The notes beneath the pieces were generated by a model, which did not search any database, was not told the origin of the DNA, and was given only the letters and a program-made list of their open reading frames with translations. The translations under genes were made by a program, and so were the position numbers. A DNA stretch of 30,732 nt from positions 1 through 30,732 of the IMG/VR virus record IMGVR_UViG_3300037420_000585, one strand, 5' to 3'. Every line of letters begins with the position of its first letter. Positions within the stretch are counted from its first letter, which is position 1. The stretch comes from a virus (Duplodnaviria; Caudoviricetes). Shown here in pieces: positions 3,775-28,988 of the stretch.

Positions 3775-4341
3775 ATGGCTGACAATGGACAATTCTTTCT
3801 CGATACAAAAACCCCGTTCCTCAACGCAGACCCTTCAGCGGTTACGCTCGCCACGACCTATAAGGCGCTGGTCCCGGCTGCCTCTCTTTCTCCGCTCGGC
3901 ACCAATTATTTCGGCTATGTCGGTAAGGCGGTGAGAATTTGGGCGTTCGGGCGCATCACGACCGCCGCCACGCCTGGCAATATCCAGCTCGGCATCCTCT
4001 ATGGGACAGGCGCAGACGCCAACGGAACGACCATCGTGCAAAGCGGAACGGTGGCCCTTGTTGCCTCACAGACCAACCTCAGCTGGTCGCTGGACGTTGA
4101 TATCGTCTGCCGTTCGATCGGCTCTGCGGGAACACTGATCGGGCTTGGAGAAGCGCATTTCAATGTTGGTGTTATTGCTTCGACCAACCAGCCCATCATG
4201 CTCCCGGCCTCGGCTCCTGCCGTATCGGCCAGCGTCGATCTCACCTCTGCGACCAGCCTGCTCAGCCTTCAGGCGCTGCGCTCGGGTTCAACCGCTGAGA
4301 CGATGCAGGTCCACGGCTTCAAGATGTTTGCGTTGAACTAA
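3775..4341 (+). CDS. Putative virion structural beta-sandwich protein (188 aa)
   Basis: GAAGGA RBS, ATG 3775 (track start 3598 over-extended); A/T/S/G-rich beta-strand composition. Confidence 0.65.
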
Positions 4342-5795
4342 TGCCTGTCCGGCTTATCGCCAGACAACCGCTGCGCTGTTCTAGTGGCGGATGGATGGTC
4401 GATAAGGGGCCACGCCCGGTCAATACGGCATCTATTCCAGCATCGTGGCGGCCCGCTCTGCTCAAGGCCTGGGACGGCACCCAGTGGGTGACGAAGCCGC
4501 TCAAAGTCTGGAACGGAACGGCGTGGGTCACAAAGCCCCTCAAGTTCTTCTCCTCCGCGCTGGTCAATACGCGCTCGCCTAATACCGCAGACGGGGCAGC
4601 TATTGTCGGACAGACACTCTTCGCTACCGACATGGGGGATTGGACGAGCACACCATCATCCTTTGTGATCGATTGGTATGACGATGTTGGTCTCGTCGAG
4701 TCGAACCAGGATTATTATCTGATCCCGGACATCGAACTCGCCCAGCATATTTATTACAAGGTCACGGCCACGCTCGGTGCGGAGACCGCCTCGGTGATGT
4801 CAGCTGGCACGGTCTCGGTGATCGATATCGATCTTTCGAACGCAATTGTCGATTTTTCGCGCACATCGGCTTCCGGTGTCGTTCCAATGACGTGGAGCCT
4901 CACCTTCGGCTCCAACGTTTACGCCGGCTACATGACGCGGTGGGAGGTCGCCGCAAGCAACAGCTTCTCAGAAACGACCAATCTTCAGGACGTTTACTAT
5001 CAACTGACCGACGATGATCTCCAGCCGGGGGTCAATCTAAGTTCGGCGCTCGCGGCAGCGGGACTAGGCGCAACCGTCACCGGCAGTATCAGTGGAACAA
5101 CCCTCACTGTCACCGCTGTTAGCCAAGGCACGTTGACTGTCGGGCAGGCGATCAGCGGAACGGGCGTCACGGCCGGAACAACGATCACTGCTTTGGGTAC
5201 GGGCACTGGTGGGACTGGAACCTATACCGTCAGCGCCTCGCAGACCGTCAGCAGCACGGACATCACTGCCGCTGTCGGTCCCACGCAATATATCCGCCTA
5301 ACGGTGTTCGCCACCAGCCCCAACGGAATTGGACATACCTACACTTATCCAGCCGCACTGACTCCAACCGATCCGGCTGGGCATCGTTATTGGAAATACA
5401 CGGTAACGGCGGGAAGCTATTCGATTCTTCGGACGATCGCTGTCGCCACCACTGTCAGTGGGACCGATATCGCTGGAGGTCGAACCTATAGCTACACGCC
5501 ATCCAACTGCGAGAATATCGGCGGGGCTTTCGACAGCGACCAGTGGTTCGATGCTAATACAGCGACGGCGGGCGGCTTTGACACCAACACTGCCGCACTT
5601 CCGAATGCCGTCACGATCGATTTCGGCAGCGCTGTCGATCTCCATGAACTTCGGCTCAGTCACTACAGCCCGACTGCTTTCCCGCCGAGTGCGTTCACCT
5701 TCGCTTATTCTGACGACAACTCGTCATTCACGACTGTTGTTTCCCCAAGCGGTCTCACCTGGACCTCTGACGAAATAAAGACCTGGAGCTGGTGA
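4341..5795 (+). CDS. Tail/head fibre-like adhesin with C-terminal discoidin (F5/8 type C)-like domain
   Basis: Tandem [26 protein letters not shown], an Ig-like segment, a [12 protein letters not shown] module, and HRYWK...IDFGSAV...[16 protein letters not shown]-terminus. Confidence 0.7.
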
Positions 5796-16608: not shown

Positions 16609-17464
16609 GCTTCTCGACAGACTGACGGGGCAAAATTCATCGGGAGTCGCCTTTAGGAAGCTGTGGCAAAAGAACTGCGAACTTATTGAAGCCCAGTTCA
16701 ACGATATCTTCCTGGCGCTGGCTTCAATTTCCGAGGTCGCCCCGATCACTATTGTTGCCGATTACACAGGAGCAGTGAACCCGGCGAACCAGCTGCCTTA
16801 TCAGGTGGCGATCAAGCGGTTCAGCGGCGACACGGACGTCACCACATCGGCGACTTGGTCGCTTACTGCCGATGCCGGGATTACTGCCTCAATCGGAGCT
16901 TCCACGGGCCTCCTCTCGATCACCGCGATCACGGCTTCGGGGACAATCACGATTTCCAGCATCTACAACGGGATCACGAAAACCAAATTGGTTCCGGTCA
17001 CGCTGAGCATCGGCGCTACGCCTTCAACGGGATCTGGTGGCGCCGGGTCCACTTCTTCGGACACGACATTCAATTCGATCAGTTCCGCCACCCACGCCGC
17101 AATTTCGGATGAGCTTACGGTCACGGTTGGATCGTCGGGAACAGTCACGCTGAACGCCGCCTCATTAACGGTGCGGACGGCCAAGGATACGGCCGGCACT
17201 TTCCCGGTCTATGGTCTCTGGCGATGGTGGAACGGAGCGGCGTGGGCCGATGTCGGAACCGAGGTTCAGAGCAGTCCGGATTGTGCGCTCGAATATGACT
17301 CCGAAGTCGGGATTTACTTCTTCAGTCCGTCAGGAAGCTTGACCGTCAATACTTCGAAAACAGGGCTGGGCGTCGGCACCAGCCAGAAGTTTCAATTATA
17401 TGCCCGTAATTCCTCCGGAACGCGGACGATGACCTTCACCGGGACTGCCTCGGCAATCCCATGA
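16601..17464 (+). CDS. Tail needle/fibre-like structural protein
   Basis: gp26 position; short helical N-terminus, then S/T/G-rich Ig-like beta domains. Confidence 0.6.
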   Translation: MPKLLDRLTGQNSSGVAFRKLWQKNCELIEAQFNDIFLALASISEVAPITIVADYTGAVNPANQLPYQVAIKRFSGDTDVTTSATWSLTADAGITASIGASTGLLSITAITASGTITISSIYNGITKTKLVPVTLSIGATPSTGSGGAGSTSSDTTFNSISSATHAAISDELTVTVGSSGTVTLNAASLTVRTAKDTAGTFPVYGLWRWWNGAAWADVGTEVQSSPDCALEYDSEVGIYFFSPSGSLTVNTSKTGLGVGTSQKFQLYARNSSGTRTMTFTGTASAIP

Positions 17465-17847
17465 TCCGGCGTGCTTCGGTCGAGGATGTCGAGAACATCA
17501 ACGACTGGATCTATCGCGACAGCGGCAAGAGGCCGGATTTCAGCTTCTTTCTCGCCGACCGGATGAATGTCTGCCTCATCGAAGGTGAGGGCGGGGCTCT
17601 GTTTGTGTGGCGGGGGCCGGGGATTTTCGAGGTCCACGTCTTCTTTACCCAGCGGGGGAAATCAGTTTTGCGCCTCTCTCGTGAGATGCTTGAGATCATG
17701 CGCCGGGATTATGGAGCTGAGACGTTCTGGGCGGCGGTTCCTGTCGAATCCCGCCACGTCATCATGTTCACTCGCCTGATGGGCTGGAAGTCACGCGGTT
17801 TCGCCGAGCTCCCGCAGGGCCGGTGCGAACTTTTCATCGGAGAATAG
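17461..17847 (+). CDS. GNAT-like virion assembly protein (P22 gp14 / T7 gp13 position)
   Basis: GIFEVHVFF...FTRLMGWKSRG; directly precedes the ejection genes. Confidence 0.65.
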   Translation: MIRRASVEDVENINDWIYRDSGKRPDFSFFLADRMNVCLIEGEGGALFVWRGPGIFEVHVFFTQRGKSVLRLSREMLEIMRRDYGAETFWAAVPVESRHVIMFTRLMGWKSRGFAELPQGRCELFIGE

Positions 17848-17848
17848 G

Positions 17849-18829
17849 ATGCCCCCAGCAATCATTGCCGCTGGAGCCGTTGCTGCCGGCACCATTGGCG
17901 GTGCCGTGATTAGCTCATCGGCCCAGAAGAAAGCCGCGAAACAGGCCAATGCCGCGCAGCAGCAGGCGACCGATGCTCAGCTCCAGCTTGGCCGCGAGAA
18001 CATCAATTTCCAGCAGGGCATCTATAACCAGAATAGGGCATTGCTCAGCCCGTTCGTGGACCGGGGAAATGTCGCCGGGCAATCCATTAATGCGTTGCTC
18101 GGGCTTCCCGCCGCGCAAGCGACACCACAGCCGGCGCAATCCTACGCGCAATCCTATTCGCCGGGACAGCCGACCAATTCCATGTGGGACGCTTATTTGT
18201 CCGCAAATCCTGATGTCGCGGCGGAATCCAGACGGGTGACGGCCGATGGTGAGTTCTCATCGCCTGAGGATTATGCGGCATGGCACTATCAGCATTACGG
18301 GCAGAATGAGGGAAGGCAGCTTCCCCAGCCCCAGACGGCTCCTGTGGCGGCCCAGGAGCCAGTTGCGACCACAACTACAGCACAGCAGCCTCTCGATGCC
18401 GCCGGGGCATTCAACAACTTCGCCAATTCGGCAGGGATGCAGTTCCAGCTCCAGCAGGGCGAAAACGCGATCAATAATGGTTATGCGGCCAAAGGCCAGC
18501 TTCAATCCGGGGCTGCGCTCAAGGGCCTCCAGAACTACGGCCAGCAAACCGCGCTCAATAATTACTTCTTGCCCTATCTGGGGCTTCTTGGCGGGCAGCA
18601 GGCGACGGGAGCACAGGCGGGTTCAGCAATCGCCGGAGTGGGGTCTAACTTCGGCAATACGGTCTCCAACATCTACGGCCAGCAGGGCAACGCGATTCAA
18701 TCCGGAGCCAATGCGGCTTCCAATGCGGCCTTGCTGAAGGGACAGGCAAACTCGAACATGTGGTCCGGGATCGCGTCAGGGTTGGGCACCTTCGCCTCAA
18801 GCTTCTCTCCTGCCACGAAGGGCTTCTAG
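17849..18829 (+). CDS. DNA ejection/pilot protein (P22 gp7-like)
   Basis: Hydrophobic Ala/Gly N-terminus, SSAQKKAA..A, LSPFVDRG, GMQFQLQQG...SGAALKGLQNYGQ. Confidence 0.8.
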   Translation: MPPAIIAAGAVAAGTIGGAVISSSAQKKAAKQANAAQQQATDAQLQLGRENINFQQGIYNQNRALLSPFVDRGNVAGQSINALLGLPAAQATPQPAQSYAQSYSPGQPTNSMWDAYLSANPDVAAESRRVTADGEFSSPEDYAAWHYQHYGQNEGRQLPQPQTAPVAAQEPVATTTTAQQPLDAAGAFNNFANSAGMQFQLQQGENAINNGYAAKGQLQSGAALKGLQNYGQQTALNNYFLPYLGLLGGQQATGAQAGSAIAGVGSNFGNTVSNIYGQQGNAIQSGANAASNAALLKGQANSNMWSGIASGLGTFASSFSPATKGF

Positions 18830-18830
18830 G

Positions 18831-19532
18831 ATGGCTGATGTCAATTGGGCTCTTGGCCTTCCCCAGCAAAACGCCGGCAACGCCTTTCTCGACGCCTTCA
18901 AGCAGGGCCAGCAGCAGCGGCGACAGGATCAGGCGCGGCAGGCTTTGGGGACGCTTGTTCAGAACCCCAATGACCCGAAAGCCCTGGCCGCATTGGCTCA
19001 GGTCGATCCGCAGAGCGCGATGGAGTTCCGTAAGCAGCAGATCGAATATTCCAAGGCCCAGTTGGCCCAGCATCAAGACTCTATTCTCAAAGGTGCAGAG
19101 ATCATTCGCCAGATCAACCCCAAGGACCAGAGGGGATGGGATCAGGCGCGGGCTCTAGCCGCTCAAGCCGGTATCGATATTTCGCAAGTGCCGCCGACCT
19201 TCAATCCTGAATACGCACAGGGGCTGATGTCGCTCGCGGATGCGTTCAAGCCGCAGACGTCCGACAACATGCACTTCATCACCCCGCAGCCCGGAGGGGG
19301 TGCTTATGGCTATGATCCGCGAACCGGCGGCGTCACGACCATTATCGCACCCAATCCCGGCGATCAGGCTCCGGGTGCTCCCGTACAGGCTGGGGGCATC
19401 CCACAAGCGGCGGTCAATTATCTAAAATCAAATCCAGCCTTGAAGGGCGAGTTTGACGCAAAGTACGGGCAGGGCGCGGCAGATAGGGTTTTAGGAGGTC
19501 AGTCGGTCGCCCCGACTGGCGGGTTTCCCTGA
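18831..19532 (+). CDS. DNA ejection protein (P22 gp20 position)
   Basis: Gln/Ala-rich helical protein; C-terminal [23 protein letters not shown] module; synteny. Confidence 0.75.
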
Positions 19533-19536
19533 TCCG

Positions 19537-19788
19537 ATGATGGCTCCTGGCCATATGACATCGGGACGCCGGACGGTCGAAGGAAACCGCTTGGTCGGCG
19601 GCGTTCCCAGTTCACATCATCTTTCCGGAGATGCGGCCGATTATGTCGGCACTTCGGTCAATGCCTTGAGTAGTTACTTCGGGCCGCAGGCACGTATCCT
19701 CGATGAGGGCAACCACATTCACGTTACGCTTCCTGGGTATGGGCGTGTCCCCTACTTCGGCCAGCGCGGCACCATCGGGAGACCCTGA
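19537..19788 (+). CDS. Peptidase M15-like zinc peptidoglycan hydrolase domain (possibly a frameshift extension of the upstream gene)
   Basis: TSGRRT.E.N..VGG...[10 protein letters not shown]...HIHV (H-x6-D...H zinc ligands). Confidence 0.8.
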
Positions 19789-22673
19789 TGCCTAATCCGT
19801 TCGACCAGTTCGATAATCACGCTGGTCCAGTCTATGGCTTGCCGCGCCAAGCGCCAATGCAGACGTCCGAGCAGGCCACTGGGCAGACGCTACAGAACAC
19901 CAAGAATCAGCTCGACATCGCAAATAACCCCCTGACGGTCGCGAACACCAAGACGAACATCGAGCAGGGACAGGCGAGCATCCAGAACCAGAAATTCAAC
20001 CAGAATCAGGGTCTGCGACAGGAATATAACGCTCTCCCGTTGACCAAGAATTACCAGACGGTGGTTCAGAAAATGGGCAGCGCTCTAAATGCTCCTCCGG
20101 GACCACAAGGTGACCTTGACGTTCTCTATGCTTTCGCGACTGTCATGGACCCTAACTCAGTTGTCCGTGAGAGCGAGCAGGACATGGCGAAGCAGACCGC
20201 TTCGCTCTACCAGCAGCTGCAACAGAAATACCGCTCGTATCTTGAGGGTAATGGCCTTCCGCCTGAAGTGCGCCAAGGTCTCATCGAGACAATGCGCCAC
20301 AATACCGCTGTCATCAACAACTCCTATAATCAACAGCGGGCGCAGTACGAGGATTTGGCCAAGCGCAACGGCTTTGATCCGGTTGAAATCGTTGGTCCCC
20401 ACCTTGGGTCAACGATGCAGCCTCTGGAAAAGCAGTATATTGAGGCCCACGGCGGCACACCGCGCATCAATGGCGTACCTGTTGACCAGCCAGCCCCAGA
20501 AGGGCCGCAAACGAACGCTCCGACGCAGACGGTCGGTCAGTTCGGCGATGCTCGGGGAGAAGCCCCACTTCCGCCCCACGCCGAGGATTTCCGCAACGGC
20601 CTTTATTCCGCCATGCGCAACCGGCAGATCAATTCCCCGGCCGACATGAAGGCATGGGTCCAGCAGTTCAACCAGCAGAACGGGACACAATATCAGCCCC
20701 AGCTCACCGCGAAGGATACGCTGCGGGCCATTAACGCGGCGCGGAAGGGTCAGGCGTTCAACGTCGAACTGCCTAAATATATGCCGAACATCTCGGACGT
20801 TCGTGGCGGAGAGAACACGTCAAACCAGGATGCCTACAATGCCGGAGTTCGTGGGATCATCGACACCCCGACGCTTGGCACGATAGATAAAATCGTTGCC
20901 GCCTCAGATACCTTGTTCAAGGGCGGCACGATGGACGAAAATCTCGCCCGTCAATATGCTATCAGTGATTACGACCAACAAAAGCATCCCTACGCTCGCT
21001 TGGCCGGTCAAGCTGTGGGCGGCGCACTCGTTCCGATGGGCGAGATGGCGTCAATTCCTCAAGCCGTGGGCAAGAGCGCTGCTTTGGGGGCCGCTTATGG
21101 GGCAGGTTCGTCGCGGTCTCTTGCCGATGTACCGCAGAATGCCTTTCTGGGAGGCGTTGCCGGTGGCGCGATCGGTGGAGTAGTTGGAGGCATCCCGCGC
21201 GCCCTTGGGGCCTTGCGCCGCGCTCCCGGCGAAGTTCCGCCGCTGGTCGATCCACAGACGGGCCAGCTCAACCAGCCTCTGGAAGCGATGACTCCCGGAC
21301 AGAGGGTGGTCAAAGCCGAGGAATATGGCGTCAACCTCCCCGCCGACGCAGCGGGAGGCCGTACCGCCGCTGTAATCGGCAAGGGGTTGGACATCATGCC
21401 CGGCTCTGCCGGCGTGATGGAGGATGCTCGCAGGGCCACGGAAAGCCAGATTGCCGCCGCTTCCGATGTGGTTGCCTCCCGCTTCGGCAATGCGCGCACC
21501 ATGAATGAGGCGGGCTCAGAGCTTCAGCAGGCGGCGAACGCTCGGATTGAGCGCGGCAAGACCGTTATCGGCAAAGCCTATGATGCAATTCCGATTGCCG
21601 ATCAGGCTCCAGCTTCGACGAGCAATAGCGTCGCCGCACTTCAAACCCTCACAGGACGATTTCAGTCAAATCCCGATCTCGCCGCCACACTGAAAGACCC
21701 AAAACTTGCCGGCTACCTCGATGCTCTGCAAAAAGGGGGCCTCAGTTGGCAGGACCTGAAGGATTTCCGGTCGATCATCGGCGAGAAGATCGGCGAGATG
21801 CGCTTCGGCGAAAGCTCCAGCACATCCGATCTCCGTGCTCTTTACGCCGGGCTCTCCGAGGACATGCAGACGACCGCTGCTCAGATGGGGCCGCGCGCGA
21901 CAGCAGCATTCAATCGTGCCAACAACCTCAACCGCGAAAATGAGCAGCTGATCCAGGGAGCCTTGACCCGCATCCTCGGCAAAGACGGCCAGCTAAGCCC
22001 GGAAAAAGCAGCCGCAGCTGTCCAAGCGATGACCAAGGGCGGCAAATCGACCGGAGATCTCAAAACGCTGGCCCAAATCCGCTCGGCAACGATGAAAAGT
22101 GGGGCATGGAACGATATCGCTGCAACCATGATCCGGCTCGGGGGGCAGCCAGTCAATTCTGCCGGCAGAGACTTCAACCCGCAGACGTTCGTCAACTGGT
22201 ATGCCGATATGTCCGAGCCTGCCAGGAAGATGCTGTTTGGCAAGTCCGAGCTTAGGGACGCGCTGGACGGCTTTGTTGCGGTCAACCAGCGGCTTCAGAA
22301 GGTCAATGCGCTCCGCAACACCTCGCAGACCGCTGGAAATCTCACTGCGGCAGGAACCGTGGGTACGATGGCCGCATCCATCGGTAGTCCACTACTCGGG
22401 GCCAAGCTGCTCGGCGTCATGGCCGGAAACTACGGCATGGCGAAGTTGTGGACCAACCCCGCCTTCGTCCGGTTGATTACTGGTTATTCAAAGGCTGTGG
22501 CCTCAGGAAACGATAACGCGGTTCGCTCGCAGATTGGGCGCATCGGGAAGCTCGCGACCACCAACCCTGACCTGAGAGAGCCGCTGATCGCGCTTCAAAG
22601 GCGCCTTGCTAACGACAATTACACGCCCTCGGTGGCGGCCTCAAGTTCCAACCAAGCTGACCAGAACCAGTAA
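19788..22673 (+). CDS. Large DNA ejection/internal virion protein (P22 gp16 position)
   Basis: 961 aa; MPNPFDQFD start, DPNSVVRESE motif, Gly/Ala-rich membrane-like segments. Confidence 0.8.
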   Translation: MPNPFDQFDNHAGPVYGLPRQAPMQTSEQATGQTLQNTKNQLDIANNPLTVANTKTNIEQGQASIQNQKFNQNQGLRQEYNALPLTKNYQTVVQKMGSALNAPPGPQGDLDVLYAFATVMDPNSVVRESEQDMAKQTASLYQQLQQKYRSYLEGNGLPPEVRQGLIETMRHNTAVINNSYNQQRAQYEDLAKRNGFDPVEIVGPHLGSTMQPLEKQYIEAHGGTPRINGVPVDQPAPEGPQTNAPTQTVGQFGDARGEAPLPPHAEDFRNGLYSAMRNRQINSPADMKAWVQQFNQQNGTQYQPQLTAKDTLRAINAARKGQAFNVELPKYMPNISDVRGGENTSNQDAYNAGVRGIIDTPTLGTIDKIVAASDTLFKGGTMDENLARQYAISDYDQQKHPYARLAGQAVGGALVPMGEMASIPQAVGKSAALGAAYGAGSSRSLADVPQNAFLGGVAGGAIGGVVGGIPRALGALRRAPGEVPPLVDPQTGQLNQPLEAMTPGQRVVKAEEYGVNLPADAAGGRTAAVIGKGLDIMPGSAGVMEDARRATESQIAAASDVVASRFGNARTMNEAGSELQQAANARIERGKTVIGKAYDAIPIADQAPASTSNSVAALQTLTGRFQSNPDLAATLKDPKLAGYLDALQKGGLSWQDLKDFRSIIGEKIGEMRFGESSSTSDLRALYAGLSEDMQTTAAQMGPRATAAFNRANNLNRENEQLIQGALTRILGKDGQLSPEKAAAAVQAMTKGGKSTGDLKTLAQIRSATMKSGAWNDIAATMIRLGGQPVNSAGRDFNPQTFVNWYADMSEPARKMLFGKSELRDALDGFVAVNQRLQKVNALRNTSQTAGNLTAAGTVGTMAASIGSPLLGAKLLGVMAGNYGMAKLWTNPAFVRLITGYSKAVASGNDNAVRSQIGRIGKLATTNPDLREPLIALQRRLANDNYTPSVAASSSNQADQNQ

Positions 22674-23008: not shown

Positions 23009-24805
23009 ATGGCCCTATTTGTCCCGCCGGTCGTTCGCGCGACCGACGCCAATAATCTCGCGCTCTCGGGTGCCCAGTGGTTCTTTTACACCGCTGGAAC
23101 GACCACGCCCGCTGCGGTCTATACTACCTCATCCCTTTCGGTTGCGCACGCCAACCCGGTCGTGGCGGATTCCGGTGGCCTGTTCGCGCCCATCTATCTC
23201 GATCCAGAAGTCGTCTACCGCGCTATTCTGAAAACATCCTCTGGGGCCACCATCCAGGATGTGGACCCGTACAACCCGCTAGAGACTGCCGTTGCGACCA
23301 GAGCCGCAATGGCGGCGTTTACCGGAGCCTCCACCAAAGTCGCACATCTGACGGAAGCCGGTCGGGAGGGCTTGTTCTTCTGGTCGAGCTCAAACCTGTC
23401 CGCTTATGTGACGCTCGACACGCAACAGGGAATCTATGTTGCGCCCGCATCCGATACCACTGGGGCGTCTGGGGCATGGGTGCGCAAGTTCGATGGTCCG
23501 CTCAATGTCAGGTGGTTCGGGGCCAAGGGCGATCTCTCTCAGGACGATCAGCCCGCAATCCAATGTGCTGTCAACGTCGCGGCGGGGCGGACGGTTTACG
23601 CTCCAGTCGGTCGATACAAGCTCGCCAGCGGCATCGTCGCCACGGACCCGATGCATATTGTCGGAGACGGTAATGGTGCTGGACCGGGGACGGCTTCACA
23701 GTCGAACAACAACGTAACGCAGTTCCACTATTTCGCATCAACCGGATATGTGATTCAAGTCACTTCGGTTTATCCCAGTATCTTTGAGAACTTCCAGATC
23801 AACGTAGCCGTAGCCAACCGCCCCATGACTTCAGGCGGCGGGATTTACTTGATTGGCACAGGGACCGGCACCGTCGCGAACTACAAAATCCGCAACGTGG
23901 CATTCAACTATGTCTACACCTCGATCCTCATCACTCGCCCGGCGTGGGGTGAGATTTCCGGCTGCTATTTTGGCGACTGGGTTCAGGACGCGATCAAGCT
24001 CTGGACCGACCAAAACATTGAGGGAAGCGGCGGTCACGTCTTCGCGAATTACTTCTTCGGACAGACGTCCTCCGCAACCCAGCGGTCATGCATTTATCTC
24101 GGCAGCGGCTATGTCAACATCTATGACAATGAAATGCTTGGGGCTCTCACTGGTATTTATATAGCTGCGCAAAATTCTCCTGTGGGCTTCATCCGTATTT
24201 GGCAAAACACAATCGAGGAACAGCACGACAACGGAATCTATATTTCCTCCGTCTCGAATACCGCCGTCTCTATGGTGGAGATTTGCAACAATGAGTTCTC
24301 GTGTGTCCCTAACGGGTCCACCTATGTGTCCTCTGTCAACATCGACCAGAACGGCAATCCGGCGGTTAATTTCATTACGGACTTGCACGTTTGTCAGAAC
24401 ATCACGCGACACACTTTTCTAGCTGCTGGCGGGAAGCATTATTACATCAGCAACTGCAAAAACGCGCTGATCTCAGGCAACATTCTTGAGGAACTCGGAG
24501 CGAACAGCCCGACAGGCATTCAGCTCACTGGCGCGTCCAGCACGGTAGGTCTGATCGCTCCGATCGTTGTCAGGGACAATCTGTTCGTCGGCACCTTTAC
24601 GGCGAAATACGCACTGCCAACCAATAATGTCGTGACCGTTCACGACAGCACCGGTTCTACTGTCGCCACTCTTCCCACAAATGCTGCGAATGGCTCAAGC
24701 TTTTGGGCCACAGACGGCACGCCGGGAACCTATGGCAACGCCATAGCCGGGGCTGGCACTGGAGCCAGCGTCAAGCGCGTCGGCGGTGCTTGGGTGAACG
24801 GGTGA
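23009..24805 (+). CDS. Tailspike / polysaccharide depolymerase (beta-helix)
   Basis: N-terminal virion-binding domain (FFYTAGTTTP...ANPVVADSGG), GASGAWVR, NVRWFGAKGD...DDQPAIQ pectate-lyase-3-type start, Asn-rich beta-helix repeats. Confidence 0.9.
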   Translation: MALFVPPVVRATDANNLALSGAQWFFYTAGTTTPAAVYTTSSLSVAHANPVVADSGGLFAPIYLDPEVVYRAILKTSSGATIQDVDPYNPLETAVATRAAMAAFTGASTKVAHLTEAGREGLFFWSSSNLSAYVTLDTQQGIYVAPASDTTGASGAWVRKFDGPLNVRWFGAKGDLSQDDQPAIQCAVNVAAGRTVYAPVGRYKLASGIVATDPMHIVGDGNGAGPGTASQSNNNVTQFHYFASTGYVIQVTSVYPSIFENFQINVAVANRPMTSGGGIYLIGTGTGTVANYKIRNVAFNYVYTSILITRPAWGEISGCYFGDWVQDAIKLWTDQNIEGSGGHVFANYFFGQTSSATQRSCIYLGSGYVNIYDNEMLGALTGIYIAAQNSPVGFIRIWQNTIEEQHDNGIYISSVSNTAVSMVEICNNEFSCVPNGSTYVSSVNIDQNGNPAVNFITDLHVCQNITRHTFLAAGGKHYYISNCKNALISGNILEELGANSPTGIQLTGASSTVGLIAPIVVRDNLFVGTFTAKYALPTNNVVTVHDSTGSTVATLPTNAANGSSFWATDGTPGTYGNAIAGAGTGASVKRVGGAWVNG

Positions 24806-24841: not shown

Positions 24842-25195
24842 GTGGTTAATCGGAGATCCCCGCCAATGTCGGATACGCTTGGGCAAATCAGAGAGGACTT
24901 GGGCGAGTTGCGCGGGTCGGTGAAGGCCATCGAGCAATATGTCCACGAAGGGAGGCACGGCACCAACAACCTTAGCCAGAAGATCGACGCGCTGGCGGTG
25001 AAAATTACGTCCGACATGGCCTCCGTCGAGGCTAGGTTGGATGGAAGGTTGCGGAGATTGGAAACCAATGCGGCCGGTGACGAGCGATCGCGCAGCATCC
25101 TCGTCACCTTCCTGCAAAGCCCGCTGCTGGCGTGGATTTTTGCCGCTGCTGTCGTGTTCTGGTCGTGGGTTACGACTGGCGGGCACAAGCCATGA
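24842..25195 (+). CDS. Coiled-coil protein with C-terminal TM helix (holin/lysis-associated)
   Basis: GGAGG before GTG 24842 (alternative ATG 24866); directly upstream of the endolysin. Confidence 0.6.
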   Translation: MVNRRSPPMSDTLGQIREDLGELRGSVKAIEQYVHEGRHGTNNLSQKIDALAVKITSDMASVEARLDGRLRRLETNAAGDERSRSILVTFLQSPLLAWIFAAAVVFWSWVTTGGHKP

Positions 25196-25740
25196 GCATC
25201 GATAGCCTCATCGAAGGCGTGCTCGGCCGCGAAGGAGGCTACACGAATAACCCTGCCGATCCAGGCGGCGCAACGATGTGGGGCATCACTGAGCGGGTAG
25301 CTCGCGCCAATGGATATGCGGGGCCGATGAATGCCCTTCCCAGAGAGACGGCGAAGGACATCTACTTTTCACAATATGTCCGCAAGCCAGGATTCGCCGC
25401 CGTCATGGCGGTGAACGAGAATATCGCTGAAGAGCTGGTTGATACCGGCGTCAACATGGGGCCAGCCATAGCCTCGATCTTTCTTCAGAAAGCACTCAAC
25501 ACCTTCAACAACCAGGGGCACGACTATCCAGACGTGAAGGTGGACGGCGACGTTGGGCCGGCCACCATAAGCGCCCTGAAAGCGCTTCTCGCCAAGCGCG
25601 GACACGACGGCGAAACCGTAATGCTCAGAGCTCTCAATGCCCTTCAGGGTGAGCATTACATTTCGATCGGCGCCAATCGACCGGCGAGCGAACTTTTTGA
25701 ATACGGTTGGTTTCTCAATCGCATTGGGAATTTGGCGTGA
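25192..25740 (+). CDS. Endolysin, glycoside hydrolase family 108 with peptidoglycan-binding domain
   Basis: EGGYTNNPADPGGATMWGIT, DTGVNMG, VDGDVGPAT, F.YGWFLNRI; ATG 25192 overlaps the upstream stop. Confidence 0.93.
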   Translation: MSIDSLIEGVLGREGGYTNNPADPGGATMWGITERVARANGYAGPMNALPRETAKDIYFSQYVRKPGFAAVMAVNENIAEELVDTGVNMGPAIASIFLQKALNTFNNQGHDYPDVKVDGDVGPATISALKALLAKRGHDGETVMLRALNALQGEHYISIGANRPASELFEYGWFLNRIGNLA

Positions 25741-27310: not shown

Positions 27311-27657
27311 GGAAGTTGACTTATATGTCAATCGCCGCGGCAGCCTTCGCGCTGTCCGGCTGCGCGCTGTCCGGCAAGACGCCGGTCTATGGCGAGATTC
27401 CGGAGTGTGAGCGGTTGATTCCGCCATCGCTGAAGGCGCCCGTGCCAGGCGTGCCGCTTCCAGAGGCTCAGAATTGGCCAGACGGGCACGAGAAGGCTGA
27501 GCCGTGGATGCAAGGCTTCCTCGGACAAACAGGACAGCTCGACAAAGCCAACGAACGCGCTCCCGCAGTCGATTACATCTATTCACAATGCCTGGAGATG
27601 CATCGCCGCGCCCTCCAGCGGGCAAAGCGCGGCGTCCTCGGAAGGATATTCGGATGA
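27307..27657 (+). CDS. Outer-membrane lipoprotein spanin (Rz1-like)
   Basis: MRKLTYMSIAAAAFALSGC lipobox; Pro-rich; QTGQLDKAN.R motif. Confidence 0.75.
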   Translation: MRKLTYMSIAAAAFALSGCALSGKTPVYGEIPECERLIPPSLKAPVPGVPLPEAQNWPDGHEKAEPWMQGFLGQTGQLDKANERAPAVDYIYSQCLEMHRRALQRAKRGVLGRIFG

Positions 27658-28988
27658 ACCGCTATCTCCTCGCCCTGCTGGCCACGGCGTGCATCTCCGT
27701 TCCTGCCCAAGCCAAGGTCTGCCGCGACAGTCACGGACGATTCGTGAAGTGCCCAACGCAGACTTGCTCTGACGGCACGGTGATTCCGCTGACCAGCACA
27801 TGCCCTACGCCTACCCCGACGCCGACACCAACCCCGACGCCTACGCCTACGCCTACGCCTACGCCTACGCCAGTTCCAACCACCATCGCTTATCCAGTGG
27901 TGTCGCCCAATGGCCTAAAAGGCGAGTTCGACGTCGCCGACAATTTCGATGTTCAGACGACGCTGATGCAAACCGTCGAGACGGTTCCCGCGAGTGCTGA
28001 TCCGGTCGGCGCGTTTCGCTTCACCTGCCTTGCCGGGCAACTCGCAAAGGATGACCCGATCGTCTATCCGGGACAGCCGGGCAAATCGCACCTTCATCAG
28101 TTCTTCGGCAACACTGCGACGAACGCCAATTCGACCTATCAGAGCTTGCGGACGAGCGGCGGTTCGACTTGCACGGTCAATGGACTCAGCGCGTCGCCGC
28201 AACGAACAGCCTACTGGATGCCGGCGATGCTCGACGGAGCGGGAAATGTCGTCAAGCCGGATTTCATCCTCACTTATTACAAGCAATTGCCCAACGGCAG
28301 TCCAGAATGCAAGGGAGCACCGGACGCCACCCATGTCGGATATTGCGTACCAATCCCGAACGGCACCAGGTTCATCGTCGGATACAATATGGCGACTGGA
28401 GAGGGCGGGCCGACATCAGATCCCAACGGCCCATTCTCTGCCGATTACTGGGGTGAGGGGTTCGAGTGCGAAAGCCCCGATCAGCAGACCTCAAGGACGG
28501 GTTTCAAGCACTCGTTCCAGGAGATAATCGACACCGGCAAGTGCCTTGTCGGCGACCACTTACGCGTGGCCATTGCGTTTCCTAGTTGCTGGGACGGCAA
28601 GAACCTGGACACTGCCGACCACCGTTCGCATTTGGCCTATCCGAACGGGGCCCTCATTGACAACTTCCTGCCCGCCTGTCCCGCGGATCATCCCTATTCG
28701 ATCCCGCAGATCGCTGAGCAAGTGTTCTTTCGCGTCGATGCCAATTTCCTCGCCGGTAAATGGGAATTGTCTTGCGACCAAATGACGGGCGGCAAGCCAA
28801 AGGGCGCCTGCCTTCACTTCGACTATTGGGAGGCTTGGTCTGCTCCCGTAAAGAACATGTGGCAGACCGGCTGCATCGACGGCCACCTAAGCTGCAATGT
28901 CGGGGAAATGGGCAACGGCCAGTCGATCATCGGAATGCAGCAAACACATCCCAACCATGTGCTGGTGCCGCTGTCGTCGATACCTTAA
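27654..28988 (+). CDS. Secreted DUF1996-domain protein with Pro-Thr linker
   Basis: Signal peptide MNRYLLALLATACISVPAQA; GAFRFTC..DDPIVYPGQPGKSHLHQFFGN, FPSCWDGKNLD..DHRSH, LHFDYWEAW; track start 27504 over-extended. Confidence 0.88.
   Translation: MNRYLLALLATACISVPAQAKVCRDSHGRFVKCPTQTCSDGTVIPLTSTCPTPTPTPTPTPTPTPTPTPTPTPVPTTIAYPVVSPNGLKGEFDVADNFDVQTTLMQTVETVPASADPVGAFRFTCLAGQLAKDDPIVYPGQPGKSHLHQFFGNTATNANSTYQSLRTSGGSTCTVNGLSASPQRTAYWMPAMLDGAGNVVKPDFILTYYKQLPNGSPECKGAPDATHVGYCVPIPNGTRFIVGYNMATGEGGPTSDPNGPFSADYWGEGFECESPDQQTSRTGFKHSFQEIIDTGKCLVGDHLRVAIAFPSCWDGKNLDTADHRSHLAYPNGALIDNFLPACPADHPYSIPQIAEQVFFRVDANFLAGKWELSCDQMTGGKPKGACLHFDYWEAWSAPVKNMWQTGCIDGHLSCNVGEMGNGQSIIGMQQTHPNHVLVPLSSIP
27804..27872 (+). 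repeat. Hexamer tandem repeat encoding a (PT)n linker
   Basis: CCNACN units including five perfect CCTACG copies at 27840-27869. Confidence 0.9.

Follow-up and report, generated by a model that had tools for sequence, protein, structure and literature searches.

To our knowledge, few natural +1 signals have been described in bacteria. The release factor 2 gene, prfB, combines an internal Shine-Dalgarno (SD)-like stimulator with P-site re-pairing on a pyrimidine run, and prfB variants that rely on tRNA-Phe (TTTTTGA) occur in 21 genomes according to the available part of PMC12421855. As the excerpted text of PMC5009743 describes, an SD stimulates +1 shifting when it lies 3 nt ahead of the codon that slips, the SD hybrid ruptures after 5-7 nt of translation, and UUU_Ynn is +1-prone in bacteria without a stop codon. 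The same tetranucleotide serves in YopN-TyeA and in influenza PA-X (UCC_UUU_CGU), and the available excerpts name no SD-plus-hairpin stimulator for such sites. In the Listeria phages PSA, A118 and A500, as far as the excerpts cover them, capsid and tail-shaft proteins are C-terminally extended in a fraction of subunits by slippage at a proline CCC before a stop or with a 3' pseudoknot. An engineered upstream hairpin, an artificial 12-bp stem that replaces the SD, was reported to stimulate +1 shifting in 70S lysates by refolding beside the E site, only without RF2 and at a stalled stop (PMC6321510, in excerpt). In T4 genes 38/25, a hairpin cuts an SD-to-P-site-codon distance of 22-27 nt to a working one, at initiation on AUG (PMC3014915, in excerpt). 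A nascent 5' stem-loop next to a T5C5-like run is found in the transcriptional slippage of Roseiflexus. Wall-lytic domains on ejected virion proteins are known as well, since T7 gp16 is a podophage ejection protein with a transglycosylase domain.

The locus described here lies in a 30.7-kb virus record with an estimated completeness of 79% (the window, i.e., the whole stretch of DNA that was analyzed), and carries an SD-like GGAGG, a hairpin and the predicted slip codon UUU-Y in a cassette of 34 nt. It is similar to prfB in the SD-like stimulator, the predicted P-site re-pairing on a pyrimidine run and the +1 direction. Unlike prfB, its SD and slip codon are 25 nt apart instead of 3 nt and flank a covarying hairpin, a stop directly follows the slip codon in only 9 of 157 split cassettes and not in the window, RF2 feedback is absent, and the product is an extension of a virion protein. 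As in PA-X, UUU is commonly followed by CGN, which is the commonest context among the cassettes, whereas an E-site UCC is present in only 1 of 76. Similar to the Listeria phages, a structural gene would be extended in part of its subunits; here, however, the slip codon is Phe, the stimulators are 5', the gene belongs to the ejection module and the extension is a variable predicted wall hydrolase. Unlike the engineered hairpin, the cassette uses a natural stem of 7-9 bp together with an SD, and most cassettes have a sense codon in the A site; unlike the T4 genes, it places an internal in-frame UUU at the working distance. The stem-loop is shared with Roseiflexus while the T5C5-like run is not, and the wall-lytic domain, which T7 gp16 carries by plain in-frame fusion, would here be joined by recoding.

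We propose that this GGAGG-hairpin-UUU(C/U) cassette very probably programs a +1 frameshift, judging from sequence comparison, so that the gene of a 233-aa protein would also give a 318-aa form with a predicted M15 domain. No description of the cassette was found in the literature searched, chiefly non-subscription papers; the available part of PMC10885494 contains no mention of TTTC/UUUC or ejection, and that of PMC9382816 no mention of frameshift, gp14 or gp15.

Layout of the junction and the ejection module

The window possesses a P22-like structural module, consisting of terminase, portal, major head protein and Hc3 head closure, followed by the ejection genes. The features relevant to the junction are as follows:

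17849..18829, + strand: upstream ejection gene at the P22 gp7 position, 326 aa; phrog_598 'DNA ejection' (E 1e-13), 34% identity to Pam1 gp12
18831..19532, + strand: 0-frame ORF, 233 aa, predicted second ejection protein (gp20 position); the unshifted product ends GGFP-stop
19494..19499, + strand: internal SD-like GGAGGT, in-frame Gly-Gly
19498..19520, + strand: hairpin with a 7-bp core (19500-06/19512-18) and a loop of 5 nt, extendable to 9 bp
19524..19527, + strand: predicted slip site UUU-C (TTT at 19524-26, then CCC)
19530..19532, + strand: 0-frame stop TGA, close to the slip site, at a distance that is not fixed in relatives
19525..19788, + strand: M15 peptidase-like cargo in the +1 frame, 87 codons from TTC (Pfam PF08291); its stop overlaps the next ATG
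19788..22673, + strand: next gene, 961 aa, at the large ejection-protein position (gp16-like by synteny); matches only PHROGs of unknown function

The 233-aa ORF sits between the gp7-like gene and the large ejection gene, as in the P22-like module. Its product shares 26% identity over the full length (E 1e-15) with gp14 of the cultivated podophage Pam1, annotated by its depositors as 'DNA/protein translocase of injectosome', and a profile of 26 aligned members of the family gave no meaningful Pfam, PHROG or PDB match. On synteny and the annotation of Pam1 gp14, the protein is predicted to be a gp20-like ejection protein. Several other genes of the window were also recorded. A 128-aa ORF (17461-17847) without PHROG match precedes the ejection genes, at a place where Pam1 has an annotated acetyltransferase, and a 484-aa ORF (4341-5795) upstream of the terminase genes, outside the tail module, has a 70-aa match to a tail-fibre PHROG. 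A pectate-lyase-like tailspike candidate is located at 23009-24805, and a 494-aa ORF after the lysis region (27504-28988) matches DUF1996 (E 2e-40). As well, an endolysin (phrog_315) is encoded at 25132-25740; the lysis enzyme is distinct from the M15 cargo.

The initial annotation, which was made from the bare sequence, had laid out the end of the 233-aa gene as GGAGGT, a stem, TTT CCC TGA, a TAG at 19492-94 in the +1 frame and ATG ATG at 19537/19540, and every element was recovered at its place. The stem arms are CAGTCGG (19500-06) and CCGACTG (19512-18), separated by the loop tcgcc and followed by GC GGG, while folding prediction extends the stem to 9 bp (19498-19506/19512-19520) with the last two bases of GGAGGT inside it. 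The gap from GGAGG to UUU is 25 nt. The +1 frame is open from 19495, and a shift at UUU would yield, by arithmetic, a fusion of 232 + 86 = 318 aa. The first ATG lies 4 nt past the 0-frame stop and 16-18 nt beyond the stem; as the annotation had it, this ATG lacks a properly spaced SD, for no GGAG or AGGA occurs within 20 nt of 19537. Contigs from four soil metagenome runs show no indel over 18800-19900, and the split is thus not an assembly error. The window hairpin alone is not significant against dinucleotide shuffles (z -0.3 to -1.0) and is significant against synonymous recodings of the same peptide (p about 0.01). An Rfam scan of 18500-20500 returned two chance matches only. A second in-frame TTT-C is present at 18885-18888 (codon 19 of the 233-aa gene), where no SD or stem role is known.

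The ORF in the +1 frame (19537-19788 when counted from ATG) had been assigned to M15 peptidases, and the assignment was borne out by Pfam Peptidase_M15_3 (E 2.2e-7, above the cut-off). It carries the Arg, His, Asp and HxH motif residues of the family; in the alignment of cargos T12, S13, R16, H32 and D39 are invariant and H66 is near-invariant. The His/Asp/His set presumably corresponds to the zinc ligands of the family. The cargo profile weakly matches PDB 1lbu, a solved muramoyl-pentapeptide carboxypeptidase (E 0.002), and the AlphaFold model of the cargo reaches a pLDDT of 93. The cargo is therefore described here as a predicted wall-peptidase domain. A search of INPHARED with it matched only two distant records of microvirus size.

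Conservation of the cassette among related loci

An M15 set selected by protein similarity comprised 44 loci plus the window, with the cargo in the +1 frame in 38, fused in frame in six and in the -1 frame in one. Among the 38 split +1 loci, 37 (33 distinct) possess an in-frame GGAGG, a stem of -8.8 kcal/mol or lower and an in-frame TTTC 27, 30 or 33 nt after GGAGG, and their stems are 7-9 bp long with varied sequence. The only miss (L044) is a distant stand-alone M15 gene. The locus with the cargo in -1 (L012:2955-3005) has a decayed stem and a C CCT TTC heptamer at the junction; it may be a pseudogene, contain a sequencing error or have switched to -1 shifting.

The cassette is not restricted to this cargo. 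It is present in 33 of 33 loci with a second M15 type (M15b; the first is called M15a) and in 29 of the best 80 of 578 SLT loci, with the cargo in +1 in 28, while the SLT loci without it among these 80 are mostly long fusions in frame, or N-terminal domains that have a start of their own. A search with the upstream protein led to L045 and L046, which are 76% identical upstream and carry the same cassette followed by an SLT domain in +1.

Scans of DNA by motif pointed to the same junction. Two motif-only scans listed 167 matches (141 distinct), and in 140 of the 141 distinct matches listed the upstream ORF shares the frame of TTT and is long or cut off by the contig end, the remaining one being a chance match; the cargo is in +1 in 135 of these 140 and in frame in five. 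In an unforced scan, with only one stem sequence and TTT fixed, 91 distinct matches were listed: all 55 of those listed in junction context have the stem preceded by GGAGGT and TTT followed by C or T, whereas GGAGG was found in none of the other 36, of which 23 have a purine after TTT. A first loose scan (119 of about 760 matches) returned mostly chance matches, yet the junction layout occurred in 13 of the 20 with a stem and in none of the 99 without.

After L038 was dropped and L021, L023 and L177 were re-picked, the set in which the cassettes were counted changed from 76 to 75, and L315 was dropped as a chance match before pooling. The pool contains at least 164 distinct cassettes, 157 of them split. 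These counts are not independent by kinship, since the 147 upstream proteins form 96 clusters at 50% identity, all linked. A covariance-model search of 151 genomes of the Sphingomonas glacialis family, which scored 42 candidates per genome and is no measure of range, yielded four matches, three in junction context (L456, L458, L460) and one false (L459). The alignment of homologous loci proposed at the outset thus revealed GGAGG-hairpin-TTTC with a covarying stem and a fixed +1 frame, instead of a variable frame without covariation, and confirmed that the cassette is real, conserved and far from chance.

Stimulators, slip codon and start codons

A contiguous match of 5-9 nt to the SD consensus is found in all 164 pooled cassettes, at 22, 25 or 28 nt from the slip codon in sequence rather than the prfB-like 3 nt. 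Need for a Gly-Gly peptide was rejected as a sufficient cause of GGAGG, because other Gly-Gly pairs of the upstream ORFs begin with GGA in only 14 of 213 cases and because L196 encodes Gly-Asp yet keeps GGAG. The L196 and Gly-Gly evidence leaves room for a nascent-peptide effect at GGAGG. At 144 other in-frame TTT-Y sites of the upstream genes, GGAG occurs at the cassette distance only once.

In an alignment of 64 ungapped cassettes (20 of these 64 use a different stem register), eight of nine stem pairs vary on both sides, and the covariation score is 0.547 against 0.221 after shuffling, the observed score being reached by none of 500 shuffles and by no slid register. Two stem classes are each almost fully paired, one with 8-9 bp and a 5-nt loop (44 cassettes) and the other with 8 bp and a G-N-N-A loop (16). 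Stems fold at -14.5 kcal/mol compared with -7.2 kcal/mol for synonymous recodings, with p <= 0.05 in 56 of 75. Related sequences can beat covariation shuffles, and more weight is given to the sliding control, the two registers and the recoding test. That both the SD and the hairpin are needed is somewhat more likely than not. An intrinsic terminator at the stem was rejected, as only 3-4 T lie downstream of it.

The slip codon is followed by C in 154 and T in 10 of the 164 pooled cassettes and never by a purine, a count partly forced by the search pattern; where the fourth base was unforced, it is C or T in 76 of 76. The next codon takes 14 values, of which CGC is the commonest (52 of 157) and cannot re-pair in +1, and the 0-frame stop follows TTT by 1-16 codons (no more than 5 in 146 of 157). 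Invariant TTT-Y and a variable A-site codon point to re-pairing of P-site tRNA-Phe rather than to a shifty stop, and a ribosomal +1 shift at UUU-Y is, from the compared sequences, the event most strongly expected. Of the initial proposal, the programmed +1 shift by SD and hairpin that adds a wall-lytic domain is strongly supported by the comparison, whereas the CCC-UGA shifty stop is not supported. A shift by slow termination at CCC-UGA, of the Listeria phage tail-shaft type, with an incidental upstream hairpin, would give the window the same junction peptide as UUU-C, and the window does have CCC TGA, a site that according to excerpts of PMC5009743 is used in Listeria phages and shifty in E. 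coli. However, only 14 of 157 split cassettes contain TTT CCC TGA, with the rarity of stops next to TTT and the non-re-pairing CGC adding to the case for UUU-Y, which makes this reading extremely improbable for the family; CCC-UGA could add to the shift yield in the window genome only. Translational hopping from GGA over the stem was also rejected, given that the window encodes Gly just ahead of TTC in +1 and many relatives encode Pro, Arg or Thr there.

The same T/C run raises the question of the polymerase. In slippage of the Roseiflexus IS630 type, a nascent stem would make RNA polymerase skip one base at TTTC, and a shortened mRNA would be translated into the fusion, i.e., the same protein product. 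The stem does lie just 5' of the run, and the loop of one stem class is a GCAA-type tetraloop, as in the Roseiflexus element. Yet 102 of 164 cassettes have only T3 followed by one C in place of T5C5, the best realigned 9-nt hybrid holds five or fewer Watson-Crick pairs in 144 of the 164 cassettes and seven at the most in any, the stem ends 3-5 variable nt before TTT, and the invariant GGAGG would be left unexplained. We regard polymerase slippage as highly unlikely.

Independent initiation, by which the cargo would be a separate small protein made through re-initiation or a split ribosome-binding site of the T4 gene 38/25 type, has a real precedent for the split site (PMC3014915, in excerpt) and draws on the ATG ATG just after the stop of the window, on the Met of 19537, retained in 22 and replaced in 11 of 33 distinct M15a loci, and on a GTG/TTG-type start at codon 7 in 13 of 15 M15b cargos. 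However, a +1-frame ATG, GTG or TTG occurs 3-13 nt after GGAGG in only 16 of 157 split cassettes and within -5..+10 of TTT, where a T4-type hairpin would bring it to the working distance, in only 19. The Met persists in the in-frame fusions L010, L013 and L040 as well and is therefore better seen as a feature of the domain, and the in-frame UUU-Y would have no explanation. Moreover, M15b cargos have no ATG in 9 of 15, and 14 of 24 SLT cargos have their presumed catalytic Glu ahead of the first ATG, with no ATG, GTG or TTG before Glu in two. Start codons thus appear dispensable for some cargos, since none precedes the catalytic motifs of Pam1 and of several cargos of the SLT and M15b types. As the main route, independent initiation is very doubtful; it may coexist as a minor one in M15a loci, and re-initiation at ATG 19537 may add some free peptidase in the window.

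Pam1 illustrates this in a cultivated phage. Its gp14 ends in a cassette, GGAGG-stem-TTT TCG (L286:3937-4279, corresponding to ON014753.1 11173-11515), and its +1 frame contains a 103-aa M15b domain. The annotated gp15 of 49 aa is the tail of that domain and begins at codon 55, right behind its His and Asp ligands. Descriptions of Pam1 give Pseudanabaena as its host; the bacterial locus with a name among those recovered belongs to Sphingomonas (S. glacialis).

Under the frameshift at UUU-Y, the stem would refold behind the ribosome and cut the gap between GGAGG and UUU to 3-5 unpaired nt, whereupon the SD could pair with 16S rRNA at prfB-like spacing. Crowding of the E site by the SD duplex together with the hairpin would drive peptidyl-tRNA-Phe off its UUU onto UUC or UUU, and such a shift would need neither a stop nor a particular A-site codon. 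Since SD hybrids are reported to rupture after 5-7 nt, the model requires the SD to re-pair after the stem refolds. Competition of the extended stem for the last bases of GGAGGT speaks against the model.

Cargo domains and the two predicted products

The cargos fall into seven clusters, including M15 subfamilies, SLT types, a lysozyme-like domain with an NNPG motif and one domain without family; two M15-like clusters, which score weakly or not in Pfam, were assigned by motif and alignment. The NNPG-motif cargo matches endolysin, tape-measure and tail-injection transglycosylase PHROGs, and the best cultivated matches of the SLT cargo include Caulobacter RapA gp40, whose SLT domain is internal and shows no cassette match. 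The +1 cargo of L371 and a domain at L010:2698-2990 (~95 aa, motif GNIDLHSRP) matched no Pfam or PHROG family, and only clusters of viral hypothetical proteins in the Atlas. In L010 this domain is followed in frame by an M15 domain. As it takes the place that wall hydrolases fill in other loci, it is regarded as a candidate new muralytic family.

More than one cargo cluster was found in 11 of the 19 multi-member upstream clusters (50% identity). This interchange of cargos, like the inverted polarity described below, goes beyond the initial annotation. Soil metagenome contigs diverge abruptly from the window at 19493 (before GGAGG) and 19526 (after TTT), and one contig that breaks at 19526 continues into an NNPG cargo. 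Such breaks at the edges of the cassette are consistent with module exchange there, and the cassette may act as a junction for the exchange of cargo domains.

In-frame fusions in relatives, anticipated by the initial annotation, were indeed found. VSN-002 gene_41, an ejected virion protein with a wall-lytic domain like T7 gp16, is such a fusion without cassette, and in the fusions L038 and L043 the hairpin has decayed. Others keep an intact cassette, and the +1 frame of these stops within four codons in 8 of 8; the matched frame that split loci leave unused does so in 10 of 156. Four of these fusions belong to the largest cargo cluster, where a base rate of 8 of 52 in split loci weakens the case (fusions 4 of 4); in the other clusters, the fusions (4 of 4, counting L010) compare with 2 of 103. 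This inverted polarity, by which a one-base change flips the isoform that needs the shift, suggests, in small numbers, selection for two isoforms instead of rescue of a broken gene. A selected ratio of two isoforms is a slightly favored interpretation, and its purpose would be to let a set fraction of the ejection subunits carry a wall-lytic domain into the periplasm during DNA entry. The initial proposal of a 233-aa major form and a 318-aa minor form that sets the enzyme stoichiometry would be one such ratio.

The same frameshift could also serve another purpose, if shifted ribosomes ended at the start of the next and largest ejection gene and metered its translation by coupling. The next gene starts -8..+10 nt from the cargo stop in 126 of 132 loci (a one-base overlap in 73), and an SD-like motif stands ahead of this start in just 51 of 132. 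Phage operons are, however, commonly packed this tightly, and descent from a fused ancestor would preserve the arrangement; GGGAGA lies upstream of the next gene in the window, and the conserved catalytic residues indicate that selection acts on the cargo itself. Coupling as the purpose is accordingly considered unlikely, and delivery of the wall-lytic domain is preferred.

Taken at its widest, the proposal is of a natural class of +1 recoding, in which an elongating ribosome responds to an internal SD from which it is separated by an extruded hairpin, without need of a stop, and in which P22-like phages of Sphingomonas-type hosts, together with Pam1, use a plug-in socket at the slip codon for at least three unrelated wall-lytic folds and one unknown domain, which would be a new wall-hydrolase family; we consider the case for it evenly balanced. 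If true, it could be tested directly whether the 16S rRNA of an elongating ribosome can pair over a folded hairpin and whether, in nature, the refolding of a 5' stem drives the ribosome ahead. The 34-nt cassette (SD, hairpin and UUU-Y) offers more than 160 natural variants, and cultivated Pam1 and the locus in Sphingomonas glacialis make it testable. As well, the cassette would correct annotations that truncate or miss the cargo, such as Pam1 gp15, and provide a sequence handle for finding new peptidoglycan hydrolases. If the described host of Pam1 is right, the signal works across phyla. Finally, if the frameshift is true, it would explain the virion wall hydrolase in P22-like phages that seemingly lack one.
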